Shown here: piece after piece, positions 17,966-48,504 of the stretch
Layout: every line of letters begins with the position of its first letter
Numbering within the stretch: the stretch's first letter is position 1
Source: Microcoleus sp.
GTDB lineage: Bacteria; Cyanobacteriota; Cyanobacteriia; Cyanobacteriales; Microcoleaceae
Assembly: GCA_042408215.1 (NCBI GenBank)
Contig: JAYFMW010000006.1
Coordinates: forward strand, 192,001 to 256,000
Direction of reading: 5' to 3'
DNA length: 64,000 nucleotides
The notes under the pieces: generated by a model
What the model was told of the DNA's origin: nothing
The model's input: only the letters and a program-made list of their open reading frames with translations
Databases searched by the model: none
Position numbers and translations under genes: made by a program

Positions 17966-18399
17966 AAAAAAGTTCGGTAAGTGGGAAACGAGCGAGTCTT
18001 TAGACCTGAGAGGGAAACGACGCGGGTGGTTTTAACCACCGTGAATCTTTTTTCCATTACCGCCTTGGAATTGCTTGACGGGAGTGTACTTTTGTAATGC
18101 ACTTTCGATGGGACAATTACCATTTCAAGCCTTGCAATCCTGTACGCATAATGGTTGCCTTTGTTGGGCCTCCCTTGCGGGGTAAAGTTCGCTTCGTCAA
18201 TGTTATTTGGGCTTGTTAAGGTAGTAGCACTATAAAGCGTGACTTTAGAATTGTTTAACTAATACCGACAGAGCAAGAAACTAGCGTCGCATTTCAGGGT
18301 GTCGTGACCCAAATAACGTAGCCAATTAAGGCTTAGACTGGTCAGGATAGCTCACAATTTCTTGCAAGCTCAGTGGCGTTGACTCCCTGAGTTCCTGAC
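17966..18399 (-). mobile_element. Non-autonomous IS200/IS605 (IscB-type) mini-element carrying an omegaRNA; iscB deleted
   Basis: Minus strand begins GTCAGGAACTCAGGG right after the DUF3038 TAA and ends right before ATGA (the DUF4335 start). Subterminal hairpins at both ends; only a short ORF remnant (ATG at 18149). Confidence 0.85.
18165..18399 (-). ncRNA. Stand-alone omegaRNA (HEARO-like) scaffold 1
   Basis: Ordered blocks TGACCAGTCTAAG, CTACGTT, GACACC, ATGCGACGCTAG, GTTAAACA and CATTGACGAAGCGAAC, shared with the omegaRNA upstream of iscB. Confidence 0.85.
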
Positions 18400-19112: not shown

Positions 19113-19487
19113 CCGAAAATTGGGCGGAGCGTAGCGGAGGGTTGAAACCCCGTCCTTTTAGGACGGCTTTGCTTGATTTGATAAATTAGTTGCCTACCTC
19201 TTGCTAGGTGGAGGGGTATGGTTACCCCCTCCCTTGGAGATCTGGTTGTCGACCGCCCCTTTCGGGTGATGTTAGCGCGCGCCTTTGTTATAAGAGCTTT
19301 TTAAACCTGCAACACTGTTCCAGTGACTTTAGAACTGTTTAATTACAGACGACAGAGCCCAAAACTAGCTTCGCATTCAAGGAGTGTCGTGACTCAAATA
19401 ACGGAGTCAGTGAAGACTTAGGCTGGTCAGTACAGCTTGCTTCGATCGCTCTAACAAGCTCAGTCCCTTTAGGGCTGAGTTACTGAC
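19113..19487 (-). mobile_element. Non-autonomous IS200/IS605 (IscB-type) mini-element carrying an omegaRNA, no ORF
   Basis: Minus strand begins GTCAGTAACTCAGCCCTAAAGGGACTGAG and ends ...AAAGCCGTCCTAAAAGGACGGGGTTTC...CAATTTTCGG, followed by ATGA. Confidence 0.85.
19250..19487 (-). ncRNA. Stand-alone omegaRNA (HEARO-like) scaffold 2
   Basis: TGACCAGCCTAAG, CCGTTATTTGAGTCACGACAC, ATGCGAAGCTAG, TTAAACAGTTCTAAAGTCAC; closely similar to scaffold 1. Confidence 0.85.
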
Positions 19488-40548: not shown

Positions 40549-40959
40549 ATTACCAGAACTCACGCTTCAAATAATTATTTTTAGAGCTAACCCTACCTCG
40601 CCCCAGCTCAAAATTCACTCTGCGAAGGCTGCCAAACAGGATTTGCTTTAACAATCCTAATACTAAATCGCCCGCCGACCCAACAAATCCTCTACTCTCC
40701 ATCCACAATCTTTACCCGTTGACAAAAAATATGGTGATTTTCAGTCTTGCTAATTGACAACAATTTATGTCATGCTGGTATTGGTGAAGATTTTAACTAG
40801 GAAAAAATATCGCTCGTCGGGTTAAGATGCTGACTGCTTCCACCCTAAAGCCTTGGAAAACTAGAACATAGGTTAACTGAATGCAGGCGCTGGCTTAAGC
40901 CAATTCATCCAGCCAATAGTGCTGAAAAGCTTCAGCTCAAGCCTCGGAGGGCGATCGCA

Positions 40960-41001
40960 GTGAACAATACCTGGACAAACATTTACAACCGACAAATTCA
41001 T
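40960..41001 (+). pseudogene. Original 5' fragment (14 codons) of the gene at 42692-43945, separated by the iscB element
   Basis: GGAGG RBS, then GTG AAC AAT ACC TGG ACA AAC ATT TAC AAC CGA CAA ATT CAT joins in frame to CCA GAA GAA at 42692. Confidence 0.75.
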
Positions 41002-41139
41002 CTCAGCCCCCAGGAGACCCACACCATAGCTGTACTCAGCTTGGTGTTGGGAGGAATGGGGGTGAATTGCGAAACGTCCCCTGAGTGAATTTTTGCGTTA
41101 GCAAAAACAGGGATGGGGACAGTTGAGTAATTCACAAAC

Positions 41140-42411
41140 TCAAAATGCATAGTTATATCCGTCCTTTTGGTGAATGGTTTTGCAATATTTGAAATTAATA
41201 CCCTGAACCAAGGTATCTGCGGAGATATTGAACGAACCGCTAGACCTAACGGCAACACGCCCGACATACGTGCCAATTTTCTTGCCACTGGTAACAGTTG
41301 CCCTCACGATGTCGCCAGTCTGAAACCCTTTGACAAACTTAAGTCGTGGCACATAGCGAGATGGGAAACCAAATTTATCCGTGCGACACATTTGACGAGT
41401 ACCGTATCCCGTCGTCTTAATTAACAACGGCTTGTTTGTCAGCACAGATAACGATTCAACTTGACCAACACAAGCTGCATCAAGCCAATGGGTTTTAGCT
41501 AGTTTCAATCGAGTCCGGTTGAACTTAGTTAATCCACCCGAACCAGTCGAAACAGGCAATCCCGTTTCTTTAAGGCGATTGAACAATGCCCATCTGGTAG
41601 AGTTGACGGCTGCTGCATCCTTGAGAGGACGTTTAGCTTGTGCAAGAATGCACTTCAGAACGTCTGGTTTCTTGGCTAAGAATTGCTCGACATCCTGAGT
41701 ACCTTTCTTGAGGTTGCACTTCTCACAAGCAAGGCAAAGGTTAGAAATGCGATCGCTGCCACCTTTGGCTTTGGGATGAATATGTTCAATTTGCAAAGGT
41801 ACATTTTCAACACTACAGTAAGCGCATTTCCTGTCCCATTTTTTCAATAGATATTCCCGAACTTCGTAGCCAGCTAATTCCCCTTGCTGATATTCAATGC
41901 CTGAATTTTCAGGATTTTCTAATTGTTGTAAATCAAACCTGACCAGTTCTTGAACAATTGAACCGATGGGGGCAAACCTAATTAATTTGTTCACCCAAGT
42001 TAGGGTAGTTTCTACACGATGTTGCAGACTTGGAGCCAGCCAGCCTTTGGTGCGGGTGCGATTTAAAAATCTTGCCTGACGATAACGAGTATGACGATTT
42101 CTCCTTGAGCGACGCAACTCGCTTCGGGACTCCAAAGACGCTTTAATTGTTTGACCTCGATGGCTTAATTCCGCACCAAAAATAACTTGCTCGTCTTGAA
42201 CCAAAGCAATCCCTGTAGTTTGAGAACCCGGATCTAATTTGAGAATAATTAATTCAGGAGTTGCTGTCACCGCCTTTTTGAGAATGATGGTAAATGGATA
42301 CCTTCTAAAAACCGCAGCTTTTCCTGCCGTTAACAACTTGTGAGCCATTGACGGCTTACAGGGTGTGAGCGGTTTTTTATTGGTATCAAGTACGAAAACG
42401 AGATTAGACAT
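41140..42411 (-). CDS. iscB: RNA-guided endonuclease IscB
   Basis: PLMP-like KKPLTPC, RuvC-I LDPGSQTTG, bridge helix RRSRRNRHTRYRQARFLNR, RuvC-II ELVRFD, HNH EHIHPKAKGG...CEKCN, RuvC-III HWLDAAC. Confidence 0.96.
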   Translation of the reverse strand: MSNLVFVLDTNKKPLTPCKPSMAHKLLTAGKAAVFRRYPFTIILKKAVTATPELIILKLDPGSQTTGIALVQDEQVIFGAELSHRGQTIKASLESRSELRRSRRNRHTRYRQARFLNRTRTKGWLAPSLQHRVETTLTWVNKLIRFAPIGSIVQELVRFDLQQLENPENSGIEYQQGELAGYEVREYLLKKWDRKCAYCSVENVPLQIEHIHPKAKGGSDRISNLCLACEKCNLKKGTQDVEQFLAKKPDVLKCILAQAKRPLKDAAAVNSTRWALFNRLKETGLPVSTGSGGLTKFNRTRLKLAKTHWLDAACVGQVESLSVLTNKPLLIKTTGYGTRQMCRTDKFGFPSRYVPRLKFVKGFQTGDIVRATVTSGKKIGTYVGRVAVRSSGSFNISADTLVQGINFKYCKTIHQKDGYNYAF

Positions 42412-42419
42412 TGTTGTGT

Positions 42420-42691
42420 CTCTCCACTTGCGCGTAATGTTAGCTTCGTCAATGTTTAAGGTCGGTAACTATGTCAAAAGCACTGGTTTAACCCTTAAGC
42501 CTGTTTAACTTCTGAGTTCTAGAGCAGTGGACTAGCTTCGCATCCACTGGTAGGTCTTTAACTCTTGCCCTAAACGTAGTAAAAGTGGCTCCACTGAGCG
42601 AAGCCGAAGTGTTCTCTTACTTAGACTGGTCAACTAGGCGAATTTCTTGCCCCCGCTATATCGGTACTCCGATTAGCGGTGGGTGATTGAC
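42420..42691 (-). ncRNA. omegaRNA (HEARO-like) of iscB
   Basis: TTGACCAGTCTAAG, CTACGTT, GGATGCGAAGCTAGTCC, GTTAAACA and CATTGACGAAGCTAACATTAC immediately upstream of iscB. Confidence 0.9.
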
Positions 42692-43945
42692 CCAGAAGAA
42701 CAGCTACTTTACAACCACTGGCTGGAGCTTGTACAGCTAGAGACGCCGGCCGAACTCATCGATCGCTTTCGGACTTTATTTATCCACTGTACAGGATATC
42801 CCGATCGCTCGATCGCCCAGGCCCTGGAAAAATTAGCAGCATCAAAACAGGCGGAACAAGAATTTAAATACATTTTGAACCGCTGCTGTCACATCCCGAT
42901 CAACCGCTGGCAAACATACCCCAGCAAGCAAGCAGCCATCCCCGAATTGATTGCTGTGTTTGAAGATGCGCCCTTCGTAGTATTTGGAAACAGTCGCTCG
43001 CGGGCGATCGGCTGCATACCCCAATTAGTACATCAATTTATCGCAAGCGAACAGTATCTCACACTCAAACGCTTCGCCCAAGTCATCACCCACAATTGGG
43101 AAGACAGCAGCAACAGCAAAACCCCTACTAGCAAGGCTCTCGGAACTTTAATTCCCCGCTACCCCTACCTTTACCAACACTGTCTCCTCAGCCAAGACAG
43201 CACCTACGAACAGCAGAAAATCATCAAAAAAATCCAAGCTCAAAAGCAGCAGCAATTTGAAATCGACCTCTCTCAATATGTAGCTCACCAAGTGAGAAAA
43301 ACCCAAATAGCCCGCCGAGCAACCTCTATCTCCTTCGCTCGTACTATACATAGTATAAAAAATCCCACCCTCTTGAGCGACCCCGAACTGTTCTGTGCCC
43401 TCAAGCAATTTGTCGGAAAAGTAGAAGGCGCCGATACTTACAGACAGCTCGCCTCGCGCTTCAGAGCGAACGCCAGCCAAACTCAGAACTACGGATCCTT
43501 TAAAGACGACTTGTACGAATACCTAATTTCTTCTGTCACCGACCACCGCTACGGCAAATGTCAATTTAACGATAAATTGTATAAGCAATTACAAAGTACC
43601 TTTCCCCACAGCGATGCTCAGAAGTTCAACGAATTTTTAACGATCAGAACTTGCAGCCAGTTGTTAAACTTTTTAGTAGTAGAGAGTCCTCAGCGACCCA
43701 ACCACTTTGTGTTCATTGACCTGATCTCAAACCTCGGCCCCACCCAAACCACAGGTCTGCTGCTGAAAATTTTACTAATTTGCCACCAAGTCAAACCCTA
43801 CCTAGAAAAGCGGCTGGCAATTTTGTTCGCCCACTACGAATTCTCGACCAGAGCAGGCGTAATGTGGTTAGTCAAAGCCCTCGAAAACCTGAATCTCGCT
43901 TTGAGTACCAACTTTGGCAAGGTAGACGTATCTTTCCTGCGGTAA
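42683..43945 (+). CDS. Conserved cyanobacterial hypothetical protein; the current GTG start lies inside the transposon end
   Basis: ILNRCCHI.INRW, RYPYLYQH, NPTLLSD, RTCSQLLNFLVVE, LENLNLALSTNFG. Confidence 0.8.
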   Translation: MIDPEEQLLYNHWLELVQLETPAELIDRFRTLFIHCTGYPDRSIAQALEKLAASKQAEQEFKYILNRCCHIPINRWQTYPSKQAAIPELIAVFEDAPFVVFGNSRSRAIGCIPQLVHQFIASEQYLTLKRFAQVITHNWEDSSNSKTPTSKALGTLIPRYPYLYQHCLLSQDSTYEQQKIIKKIQAQKQQQFEIDLSQYVAHQVRKTQIARRATSISFARTIHSIKNPTLLSDPELFCALKQFVGKVEGADTYRQLASRFRANASQTQNYGSFKDDLYEYLISSVTDHRYGKCQFNDKLYKQLQSTFPHSDAQKFNEFLTIRTCSQLLNFLVVESPQRPNHFVFIDLISNLGPTQTTGLLLKILLICHQVKPYLEKRLAILFAHYEFSTRAGVMWLVKALENLNLALSTNFGKVDVSFLR

Positions 43946-43995
43946 ATAGCATTGGCACAACTAACTACTAAAACCCGTTGAAAAGAGGCTATTCT

Positions 43996-44175
43996 CGAAA
44001 AATTGGGTGGAAAACCCCGTCCTAAAAGGACGGCTTTGTGTTAAAATGGCTTCAAGTCGGGATAGGAAACTGCCACGACTCTAAATGGACCTAGAGAAAA
44101 CGTAAGACTATTTCGGTAGCAGATTTCTTAGAAGTGTCAAGAATCACCGCACCTGATAGTCGGTGAGTGTTTCAA
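43996..44175 (+). mobile_element. 180-bp non-autonomous IS605/TnpB-type mini-element (left end + right-end guide-RNA scaffold, no ORF)
   Basis: Left hairpin CCCCGTCCTAAAAGGACGGCTTT is near-identical to the tnpB element's left end. Right end GAATCACCG...CGGTGAGTGTTTCAA matches the tnpB right end GAATCACCG...CGGTGAGAATGTCAA. Confidence 0.85.
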
Positions 44176-44197
44176 ATTTTAAAGTACCAAGTGTGAA

Positions 44198-44312
44198 TCA
44201 GATTCGGTTGCAGGCTTTGTTCATTGCTACAGAATTGTCTAAAAACTTGCCCTTCTGTATCGGCAGGGAACTCTCCGAAACTGAAATCTTACACCATCTA
44301 AATTTTGGAGTT
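44198..44312 (+). promoter_or_regulatory. Conserved rbp 5'-UTR boxes
   Basis: TTCGGT near 44203 and TCTCCGAA at 44272, complementary to the TTTGGAG RBS region; resembles the leader boxes of cold-inducible cyanobacterial rbp genes. Confidence 0.55.
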
Positions 44313-44319
44313 ATTCCCC

Positions 44320-44667
44320 ATGTCGATATACGTCGGTAACTTATCCTATAAAGTTACCCAAGAAGACATCACCGCCGTCTTCGCTGAATACGGAACCGTT
44401 AAACGAGTACATCTACCTACAGACAGAGAAACGAGTCGCCCCCGTGGCTTCGGTTTTGTAGAAATGTCAACCGATGCAGAAGAAGATGCAGCCATTACGG
44501 CTCTCGACGGAGCAGAGTGGATGGGTCGTGACCTCAAGGTTAACAAAGCCAAGCCTCGCGAAGATGAAGGCGGCCGGGGCGGCGGCAGCCGGGGCCCCGG
44601 CGGCCCAGGAAAATTTCCTCGCGGAGAAAGAGGAGGAGAAAGAGGAGGAGAAAGAGGACGTTATTAA
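44320..44667 (+). CDS. rbp: RRM RNA-binding protein with a Gly-rich tail (Rbp family)
   Basis: MSIYVGNLSY, RGFGFVEM, WMGRDLKVNKAKPRE. Confidence 0.96.
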   Translation: MSIYVGNLSYKVTQEDITAVFAEYGTVKRVHLPTDRETSRPRGFGFVEMSTDAEEDAAITALDGAEWMGRDLKVNKAKPREDEGGRGGGSRGPGGPGKFPRGERGGERGGERGRY

Positions 44668-44776
44668 TTTCCTCGGAATTTCCTCTGACGCAGATTTGAG
44701 ATTTGAGATGGGAGATCAAGAGCACCTAGCTCCGAACCGCCTTCTCTTCAAATTTCCTGCTCTACGGTAAATACAC

Positions 44777-44813
44777 GCTAAAGCCAAGGGTCAAGCCCTT
44801 GGCTTTTAGCTTT
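44777..44813 (+). terminator. Probable intrinsic terminator after rbp
   Basis: GCTAAAGCCAAGGG-TCAAG-CCCTTGGCTTTTAGC hairpin. Confidence 0.6.
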
Positions 44814-44815
44814 GA

Positions 44816-44910
44816 CAGTCCTGGACGCAAAAACAGAAGAGCAACACTATTGGTAGCGGTAAGGTGTTCTTAGGCGCACCCTACAGATCTAGTTTATGCG
44901 TCCAGGGCTA
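44816..44910. mobile_element. 95-bp MITE with 14-bp TIRs and a 5-bp TSD
   Basis: CAGTCCTGGACGCA...TGCGTCCAGGGCTA flanked by TTTGA on both sides. Confidence 0.8.
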
Positions 44911-44997
44911 TTTGAGTTAAAAGCGCGATTAGCGAATCTAGTTAAGACCGATCGAATTTTTGGTTGAGATGGCAGACCCCTGCTGTGTACTCAGAGT

Positions 44998-45279
44998 CTA
45001 TTCGTCAGATTCGATGCTACTGCTCAATCCGTGATTGTTCAGCGTTTCGCAGTAAAACTCAGCGTGTTCTAGAGCACAAACAATCACCAGTCCCAGCCCG
45101 TTAGTGTGAGCTTCCATCATAATGTTCACAGCCTGTGGCTGAGTCAGACTCGGTACCGTCTGCATCAGAGTCTGCACCACATACTCCATAGGGTTGAAAT
45201 CATCATTGTGGAGCAGAACGCGATAGCGCGGTGCAAGCTTACGGACCGTTGAAGGCTTTACAAGAATTTCGACAGACAC
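44998..45279 (-). CDS. clpS: ATP-dependent Clp protease adaptor ClpS
   Basis: PRYRVLLHNDDFNPMEYVV, IMMEAHTNG, EHAEFYCE. Confidence 0.96.
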   Translation of the reverse strand: MSVEILVKPSTVRKLAPRYRVLLHNDDFNPMEYVVQTLMQTVPSLTQPQAVNIMMEAHTNGLGLVIVCALEHAEFYCETLNNHGLSSSIESDE

Positions 45280-45594
45280 TACTTTGTATCCTCCTGCTGG
45301 GTCAAATGTTAAAATTTGTGAATAATCTAGAGCCGGATTCCTCCGCTGTGCAATGGTATCCGACTTTTAGTTATTTTAAATGAATGGAGATGCTGTTAGG
45401 TAATGAAATTCAAAGAAAGCAGCCAAAAAGTCGATCGCCACCTTTGAACCCAAAACCGGACGCAGATGCGGTTTTTTCCAACTCCAGTATCCAAAGCCAA
45501 TCGCCCTACCTTCCTAGCGCCGTACAATTAGAATACAACAGATCAAAATAACAAACTACTACCTGTCGAGTCTCCAGAACTGAGTGAACGCTAT

Positions 45595-47165: not shown

Positions 47166-48504
47166 TTGACATTCTCACCGGGCTGAAGCCACGGTGATTC
47201 TAAACATCACTGTTTAGGCTTCCTCTTTCGGCGATCCGACTTATTTAAAAGAGTTTCCTCATTCAAACTCTTGTTGATATCTCCAGAGGCGTTTGAGGTT
47301 TCCGTGTGCCCCACGGTACGCAATCCAAGTTCTAATATGTTGCGAGCGGCGTTCCAATCTCGGTCTAAAACGAATCCACAATGTGGACAAATATGTGTTC
47401 TTTGACTTAATGACTTTTTCGCCACTTTCCCACAACTAGAACAATTTTGACTTGTATAGTGTGGCGGTACTGCAACAGTTGCCACCCCAAACACTTTGCC
47501 AAAATATTCAATCCAATTTCTAAAAGCTGTCCAAGCCGCATCTGATATCGACTTGGATAGCTTTTTGTTTTTGACCATGTTACGCACCTGCAAGTCTTCA
47601 TAGGCTACCAAGTCGTTAGACTGGACTACGCACCTTGCTAATTTCACAGCAAAGTCTTTACGCCGCCTGCTTACCTTGAGGTGTTTTCTACTTAAACAAT
47701 TTCGAGCCTTAGCTCTATTTTTAGAACCTTTCTGCGTTCGAGAAAGTCTACGATTAAGCTTTTTTAACGATCTTTCGGACTTTCTTAGATGGCGCGGGTT
47801 CTCTACGGTGTTACCGTCAGAGTCTGTGTAGAAATGAGTTAGCCCTACATCCAAACCGATTGTTTTTCCGGTCTGCTCCCGCTTTTCGTTTCGTTCAGTG
47901 TCAATACAAAATTGCACGTAGTAGCCATCGGCTCGACGAACTACGCGCACTCGTTTAACTTGACTTAGCCGATAGAAATGTAGGTCACGAGTTCCCCATA
48001 ATTTAAAAATTCCGGCTTTAAATCCATCAGTGAAAGTTATATTTCGTCGGTCTTCAGAAAGCTTCCACCCACAGGTCTTGTATTCAACAGAACCGTGCGT
48101 TTCATGCTTTTTGAAGTGCGGAAAACCTTTCTTTCCTGGTTTTGCCTTCTTGCAGTTGTCAAAGAATCGTGCAATCGCTGACCAAGCTCTTTCAGCAGAA
48201 GCTTGCCTTGCCATTGAGTTGAGTTTACTGGCCCAAGGAAATTCTTTGGCAAGAACTACGCAATAAGCGCTTAAGTCGTAGCGACCTACCCCTGGGGTAT
48301 CCATCCAGTACCTGATGCAGCTATTACGAATGAAGCGAGCAGTACGAATGGCTTCGTCTAGCCGTTCGTACTGCTCGCTTTTCCCTTCTAGCTTGGCTTC
48401 AAATACTAACATTTACGTCGAGTGAGTGAATATAAAGACTATAACAGAGTTCTGGAGAAATTAAAGCCGTCCTATAAGGACGGGGCTTTAGACCCAGCTT
48501 TTTG
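47166..48504 (-). mobile_element. IS605/IS1341-group tnpB-only element
   Basis: Minus strand TTAC|CAAAAAGCTGGGTCT-AAAG-hairpin left end; right end GAAT-hairpin...TCAA. Confidence 0.9.
47207..48412 (-). CDS. tnpB: RNA-guided endonuclease TnpB
   Basis: RuvC-I IGLDVGL, RuvC-II AYEDL, Zn finger CSSCG...CPHCG, RuvC-III DRDWNAARNI. Confidence 0.96.
   Translation of the reverse strand: MLVFEAKLEGKSEQYERLDEAIRTARFIRNSCIRYWMDTPGVGRYDLSAYCVVLAKEFPWASKLNSMARQASAERAWSAIARFFDNCKKAKPGKKGFPHFKKHETHGSVEYKTCGWKLSEDRRNITFTDGFKAGIFKLWGTRDLHFYRLSQVKRVRVVRRADGYYVQFCIDTERNEKREQTGKTIGLDVGLTHFYTDSDGNTVENPRHLRKSERSLKKLNRRLSRTQKGSKNRAKARNCLSRKHLKVSRRRKDFAVKLARCVVQSNDLVAYEDLQVRNMVKNKKLSKSISDAAWTAFRNWIEYFGKVFGVATVAVPPHYTSQNCSSCGKVAKKSLSQRTHICPHCGFVLDRDWNAARNILELGLRTVGHTETSNASGDINKSLNEETLLNKSDRRKRKPKQ

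Follow-up and report, generated by a model that had tools for sequence, protein, structure and literature searches.

The stretch analysed here, hereafter the window, comprises 64 kb of Microcoleus sp. DNA (C6:192001-256000 of a genome of 7.36 Mb, G000), whose genes have their named close homologues in Microcoleus and Tychonema. At 41002..42691 (-) it carries a non-autonomous IscB element of the IS200/IS605 family, 1,690 bp long and without target duplication, which lies antisense within a gene of the Sll1247 family. The insertion is real and recent, and represents an ordinary IscB case of an already known mechanism. It probably knocks the host gene out or far down, and the GTG at the end of the element, which an earlier note had proposed as a replacement start, is likely not a working start codon.

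The interrupted gene and the empty site

The 5' end of the gene is stranded to the left of the element. A Shine–Dalgarno (SD) sequence, GGAGGG, at 40946..40951 (+), which recurs with the same motif and in the same place at the loci of relatives and has an anti-SD duplex energy of -10.0 kcal/mol, precedes a GTG start at 40960 and the first 14 codons (40960..41001, +), which read (M)NNTWTNIYNRQIH, just as the earlier note had described them. From this start the frame now runs for 42 codons, 14 of them native and 28 inside the element, and then stops. The body of the gene, codons 15-431, follows with its frame open at 42692..43945 (+), and when 41002-42691 are removed the sequence becomes a single open frame of 431 codons, reading ...RQIHPEEQLLYNHW, in agreement with the claim of an insertion after codon 14 whose deletion fuses the two parts in frame.

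The uninterrupted allele is found in relatives. The closest homologue, P0001 (431 aa, 94%), starts with the fused N-terminus letter for letter, and an N-terminus identical to the 14 stranded codons is shared by P0001, P0126, P0127 and P0129-P0133, so that this short peptide, on which the idea of a split gene had been staked, does belong to the homologous proteins. At the DNA level, the scarless empty junction is present in G008, and the empty site also occurs in G020. Of 78 genus relatives, 73 have the host gene intact, as a single uninterrupted frame from residue 6 or earlier to at least residue 430; the other five comprise the frameshifted G008, two copies cut at contig ends and two incomplete assemblies without an orthologue. 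The filled junction was met in none of the 78 other species of the genus, a set that follows GTDB in having one genome per species and in which incomplete assemblies cannot show absence.

The element and its boundaries

At the locus itself the boundary of the element is ambiguous by one base, and alternative boundaries were scanned. It was placed between TCAT and CTCAG on the left and directly after TTGAC on the right because sibling copies share both of these ends but have other flanks. Full-length siblings occur elsewhere: one in the same genome (C6:1031175-1032893) matches over all 1,690 bases (90.7%) and has the same two ends with TCAT on its left, and another in G005:C14 is 98.6% identical, again with the same ends, other flanks and TCAT on the left. 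The target or transposon-adjacent motif (TAM), ATGA (TCAT on the plus strand, or TTCAT with one extra base), therefore lies outside the element, at 40998..41001 (-), and the same motif stands beside sibling copies elsewhere.

The iscB gene (41140..42411, -) has an open frame of 423 aa that matches NF040563 with 471 bits (cut-off 175) as well as RRXRR and HNH, and that gave E values of 6e-41 to 8e-27 against solved IscB structures; it contains PLMP-like, RuvC and HNH motifs. Directly upstream of it lies the omegaRNA (HEARO) scaffold (42434..42691, -), which matches Rfam RF02033 over the entire model (1-211/211; 121 bits, E 1.8e-24) and starts at 42691, precisely the element end fixed by the siblings. 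Subterminal hairpins are present at both ends: the left one (41018..41051, +) is a predicted TnpA site (z -3.5 versus 200 shuffles), and the right one (42649..42684, +; z -4.6 as DNA, -24.7 kcal/mol as RNA) holds the proposed replacement GTG in its 3' arm. Directly 5' of the scaffold, and derived from the flank, is the predicted guide (42692..42711, -), for which a length of 20 nt was assumed; it covers host codons 15-21 in antisense, and it is true by geometry that the omegaRNA runs antisense to the 5' end of the gene, as had been stated. An iscB with RuvC split by HNH, an omegaRNA positioned at the end, two subterminal hairpins, a fixed motif without duplication and a scarless empty site together place the element among the IS200/IS605 IscB (ISC2/OMEGA) elements. 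Twenty Y1_Tnp matches occur in the genome, most of them without stops, and are candidates for a TnpA acting on these ends in trans.

The sequence of the guide is unique in the 7.36-Mb genome, where it is followed by GTCA and not by ATGA, and a genome scan for its last 14, 16 or 20 nt joined to ATGA revealed no off-target at up to two mismatches. Guide plus ATGA thus matches only the empty (restored) site, which bears out what had been predicted.

Similar elements have been described. The ISC transposons with an N-ATGA target, ISC2-1_HM, ISC2-1_MS and ISC1-1_MA, as presented in the main text of Kapitonov, Makarova and Koonin (2016, PMC4810608), also have iscB as their sole gene, a 5'-GT terminus on the iscB strand and an insertion point just upstream of ATGA, together with the lack of target duplication, the subterminal hairpins and the empty sites in relatives, but belong to another host and another sequence family. 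The term "start codon" has no occurrence in that main text, which leaves the effect of the ends on host genes undiscussed. In passages of Meers et al. (bioRxiv 10.1101/2023.03.14.532601), the ISGst IscB element of G. stearothermophilus has in common with ours the TTCAT TAM by the left end, the guide outside the right end, a scarless donor joint that is a target of the nuclease, a TnpA provided in trans and protein-free derivatives. IStrons, in which a group I intron is combined with IS605 or IS607, are, from the description in PMC4227781, likewise IS605-type elements within coding sequence whose removal restores the gene; the element studied here differs in having no group I intron and in being antisense to the host mRNA. 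Rfam searches of the window at the gathering score gave three HEARO matches only and no group I intron at the element, and removal at the RNA level in the manner of an IStron was rejected on these grounds, the omegaRNA and iscB being on the minus strand and the host gene on the plus strand. This orientation precludes splicing from the host mRNA, and restoration would occur only at the DNA level.

One could also suspect an assembly artefact in the filled allele, produced when a multi-copy element was mis-joined into the gene. The family is indeed multi-copy, and in the four sequencing runs consulted (three samples, available as contigs only, X1 and X7 being one sample) no read piece met the 31-letter rule for bridging a junction, pieces below it counting as hints. 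However, the junctions fall exactly at the family's target motif without duplication, the MIDPEEQ start recurs in another assembly, on a different allele (P0125), and contigs of X3 and X4, from two studies, extend 25-30 letters across the filled junctions, which is a hint of the kind just mentioned. We regard the artefact as scarcely credible.

The GTG at the end of the element

The earlier note had observed that the last bases of the element, GTG ATT GAC (42683..42691, +), are in frame with the body of the host gene. They are: from the GTG at 42683, which begins (M)IDPEEQ, a frame of 420 codons is open. The nearest in-frame stop before it lies at 42674, and the first in-frame start after it is the TTG of codon 65. 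This agreement of frames is likely incidental. Among the 70 HEARO matches in the genome, nine copies end in GTG(A/G)TTGAC, and at the other eight the GTG opens only 1-50 codons; in 33 of the 70 copies one or more frames have a start codon (ATG, GTG or TTG) that is open to the flank, and the studied element has one in two of its three frames. Scans of two collections for the end pattern retrieved 47 loci with 39 distinct flanks, two of which are also carried by G000, and measure the outcome of such ends and not their frequency, because the pattern itself contains GTG. At only two of the 39 distinct sites did the terminal GTG open at least 100 codons, and just one of these matches Pfam (YhcG_C, from residue 33). 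Judged by these ends, the GTG is a fixed end motif of a sub-family, and its position as a replacement start is probably due to chance. At the YhcG_C site (L087:2389-3009, -), the terminal GTG shares its frame with a coding remnant and the contig ends 138 bases into the element; this looks like another mid-gene insertion with a chance match of frames.

Predictions of folding and ribosome binding point in the same direction. With three window sizes, the probabilities of being unpaired for the bases of the terminal GTG were 0.00, 0.01-0.02 and 0.19-0.27, and the mean over positions -15 to +3 was 0.13, versus 0.49-0.64 at the native start. The best anti-SD duplex at the terminal GTG reaches -6.1 kcal/mol and overlaps the codon, compared with the -10.0 kcal/mol of the native site. 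On these models the terminal GTG is probably little used, being buried in the end hairpin without a properly spaced SD. A protein initiated there would also lack Arg11, a residue present in 116 of 119 homologues (E17, Q18 and Y21 are present in 117), and would have five residues before its EQ motif, compared with 11 or more in all 114 anchored homologues. We consider the gene likely broken and not rescued, because the spare start is a standard feature of the family and is predicted to be hairpin-buried; the part of the earlier proposal in which the element end supplies a working start was not supported.

Several observations weigh against a broken gene. Both of the filled alleles known, P0121 and P0125, keep the 420-codon frame open. 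Relaxed selection was not seen, the window branch versus G008 having seven synonymous and four non-synonymous changes, mostly older than the insertion, and the private changes of the filled alleles (3 and 4) being not clearly more than those of the empty ones (0-3); divergence since the insertion is so small that this test presumably has little power either way. Most of the lost N-terminus may be dispensable, since residues 1-10 are of low confidence in the structural model (mean pLDDT 35, compared with 80 for residues 11-20), and loss of the gene is not generally neutral, judging by its intactness in the 73 relatives mentioned above. Folding predictions, moreover, ignore unwinding by the ribosome. 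An SD is absent from many cyanobacterial genes. RNA runs X14-X19 contain a share of 0.10-0.37 of the words and carry no weight as evidence.

These points bear on the possibility of a leaky rescue, in which read-through from the native promoter or a promoter inside iscB would give an mRNA, the terminal GTG would be used and the 420-aa protein would work well enough for the insertion to be tolerated. The exact match of frames, a net loss of only 11 residues, the low-confidence first ten residues, the frame kept open in two filled alleles 17 residues apart and a sigma-70-like match on the plus strand at 42220-42249 all speak for it. On the other side are the predicted pairing of the GTG, its missing SD and the lost R11; the motif is generic, the match of frames is a one-in-three event (two in three when TTG is counted), and the element contains about as many promoter matches as chance would give (4 versus 3.3 expected), the terminator scan being likewise at chance level. 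A rescue of this kind is in our opinion unlikely. Should the gene indeed be rescued by the terminal GTG, an RNA-guided transposon would here be reducing the cost that it imposes by a novel route.

Alleles in relatives and in the population

If the gene is broken in the window, it is not the only broken copy in this lineage. The G008 allele has a 1-nt deletion after which the protein stops at 166 aa, and the C-terminal piece of this frameshifted allele is identical to P0122/P0128, recorded on six and four contigs, possibly from related samples. Because the piece is on record on several contigs, a one-off assembly error is an unlikely source of the frameshift, and loss of the host gene is apparently tolerated in this lineage. 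Upstream of the same gene, G008 has in addition a separate insertion of ~390 bp (L041, G008:C460:1889-2281), equivalent to window position 40867/40868.

The 90% protein cluster of the host protein has 28 members, and among the 15 of them that are listed two start with MIDPEEQ, namely the window's own (P0121) and P0125; from its N-terminus, P0125 would carry the element upstream. The two filled alleles differ at 17 residues, and for each of them the distance to an empty allele is smaller (11 and 8 differences). The approximately unbiased (AU) test, on 13 rows with fragments and duplicates excluded, only just rejects their sisterhood (p 0.047). A second filled allele on a different host haplotype hints weakly at natural homing or recombination; two insertions and repeated loss are, like homing and ordinary recombination, compatible with the pattern of alleles. 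A bolder scenario can be built on it, in which the element is homing through a wild population at the same base on two haplotypes, and can afford this since its omegaRNA end doubles as the start of a shortened Sll1247. We hold that combination to be very improbable; if true, homing together with a terminal start would parallel the IStron strategy without any splicing, and would invert the family's habit of parking at start codons described below. Homing by IscB has so far been shown in laboratory assays in E. coli, and the coexistence of filled and empty alleles in close relatives, with the element on two haplotypes, makes IscB homing in nature testable here.

Guide transcription and the fate of the insertion

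The earlier note had further supposed that excision would regenerate the gene but create an IscB target, so that the insertion is locked in. The empty site would indeed be a target, as has been published for all such elements: passages of Meers et al. (bioRxiv 10.1101/2023.03.14.532601) describe how TnpA excises the element scarlessly and how IscB or TnpB then cleaves the empty joint. The second half of the supposition is less secure. In the same source, on the ISGst element and its peel-and-paste and cut-and-copy movement, the IscB guide is encoded beyond the element and depends on external transcription, and copies are biased towards the orientation of upstream genes; the copy studied here is antisense inside a gene, and its cleavage activity is a prediction. 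A guide would here need a transcript running antisense through the host gene. A promoter consensus scan of 42692-45400 on both strands found none, versus 2.1 expected, and such scans miss many promoters. A lock by IscB cleavage of the restored site is accordingly to be taken as possible.

This leads to the idea of an unlocked, reversible insertion, compatible with a broken gene, in which no omegaRNA bearing this guide is made, excision by TnpA is free of penalty and populations mix both states. It draws on the absence of promoter consensus in 42692-45400, on the external transcription that the guide requires (Meers et al., bioRxiv 10.1101/2023.03.14.532601, in the passages on IscB) and on the sample X1/X7, where the empty joint is 13.3 and 16.6 deep versus a flank of ~25-37, that is, about half. 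This sample, however, departs from the window sequence at several positions in the flanks and is possibly a mix of strains, and the empty contig of X7 points to a separate strain because it has a linked upstream change also found in G008. Pervasive antisense transcription is common in cyanobacteria, according to the abstract of PMC2758717. Many promoters are overlooked by consensus scans. We judge this state of affairs to be decidedly unlikely.

The course of events that we favour, in which the gene is lost or nearly so, would be as follows. An element with the ends and target motif described, for which relatives provide the empty allele, would have been pasted here by a TnpA whose gene lies at another place in the genome; the most likely donor is the near-identical copy at the AI-2E-transporter site in this lineage. 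The native start now runs through its 42 codons and stops, while little or no protein would be made from 42683, and any product would be without Arg11. Loss of the gene would be tolerated in a lineage that also has a frameshifted allele. Excision by TnpA would restore the gene exactly, and IscB with its guide would cut the restored site and favour re-copying, as is established for the family, but solely on condition that transcription antisense through the host gene yields the guide. The locus is a clean natural IscB insertion with an empty allele in hand, and as such a useful test site and not new biology.

Insertion at host start codons

The far end was assigned, by end motifs read off the sequences, at 50 distinct ATGA-flanked sites among the 70 HEARO copies; one mis-assigned end was dropped, two copies share one end, and the ends of the remaining copies are different or were not recognised. 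At 30 of the 50 sites the ATG of the target is the first ATG of a frame of at least 80 codons in the sense orientation, compared with 5.4% of all 49,823 ATGA sites and 17.4% of start-plus-intergenic sites, the latter from a crude annotation (p 1.5e-25 and 2e-11, respectively, with sites taken as independent). Examples of the 50 ends, all in G000, are those at C1:112732, C9:14585, C30:473030 and C19:25187, and the host genes include rpsP, EF-G, chlB, sucD, petL, petM, psb27 and pcxA. Of 39 downstream frames of at least 28 codons scanned with Pfam, 32 match, with full-length models beginning at or near residue 1 for rpsP, cobH, chlB, pcxA, psb27, DAHP synthase and EF-G. The near-identical sibling itself sits on the ATG of an AI-2E transporter gene. 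The TnpB control had just three TnpB-linked ends with ATGA, too few for comparison.

This preference likely reflects survival, as the host gene stays whole and the guide gets the host promoter. The studied locus is an exception to it, and as an exception asks whether an antisense copy can make a guide. No paper on the supply or targeting of start codons by IscB elements was found in the literature within reach, which included passages of PMC13565253 and excluded subscription papers and bioRxiv supplements that may be relevant.

Some details of the ends deserve mention. Two sub-families end in a G-rich, SD-like motif (GGAGG/GGGGG) 5-7 nt before the target ATG (window 41002-41016, -; L062, L068, L070, L071, L080 and L084), and two commoner sub-families end in T runs instead. 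A general role of the SD-like ends as replacement ribosome-binding sites was rejected, as they are present at only six of 31 sites with long open reading frames and limited to two sub-families. In G000, 42 left ends of the B type lack a HEARO, ~29 of them followed by ATAA (counted by eye) and five by ATGA, and many are linked to tnpB; after 13 HEARO-linked ends of the B type comes ATGA. It seems that the target found with this end hairpin varies with the type of nuclease. Two tandem HEARO copies in the window, at 18182-18399 and 19266-19487 (-), have no detected iscB and share a single far end, which sits on the ATG of a DUF4335 gene.

The Sll1247 family and the neighbourhood of the gene

The host gene was assigned through its homologues: PF27130 and PF27138 are present, by precomputed annotation, on 120 of 120 homologues among the matches listed, and the names Sll1247_N and Sll1247_C were obtained via homologue P0114 (feature score 0.82, a lead by itself). 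The host protein had no match in the local Pfam or NCBIfam profile libraries. Its AlphaFold model is all-helical (pLDDT 69, pTM 0.59), and a Foldseek search of the PDB with this model gave no match at E <= 0.001. The divergent neighbour is murF (TIGR01143; 39169-40563, -). Sll1247 of Synechocystis, a hypothetical protein, shares both the PF27130/PF27138 family and this arrangement, its gene being paired likewise in a passage of PMC2758717 ("sll1247-murF (slr1351)"). Other passages that mention sll1247 report a Crp site upstream of it (PMC3159480), its listing as a clade-B signature protein (PMC2823733), its lower expression in a lexA mutant (PMC4759255) and an intergenic ncRNA; none of these passages gives a function for it.

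Paralogues of the host gene occur in G000 on C29 (45%) and on C22 (26%). The C29 paralogue (C29:115777-116979, -; 45-49%) lies inside an open frame of ~885 codons, which from its sequence would be an Sll1247 module fused to another domain, and nearly all listed genus relatives have it. In the window, a protein-free IS605-type element of ~145 bp (43996-44140, boundaries set by eye) lies just 3' of the stop codon of the host gene, with an end hairpin of the B type on one side and GTCAA on the other, and a tnpB at 47207-48412 (-; NF040570, 286 bits) marks another IS605-type element nearby.

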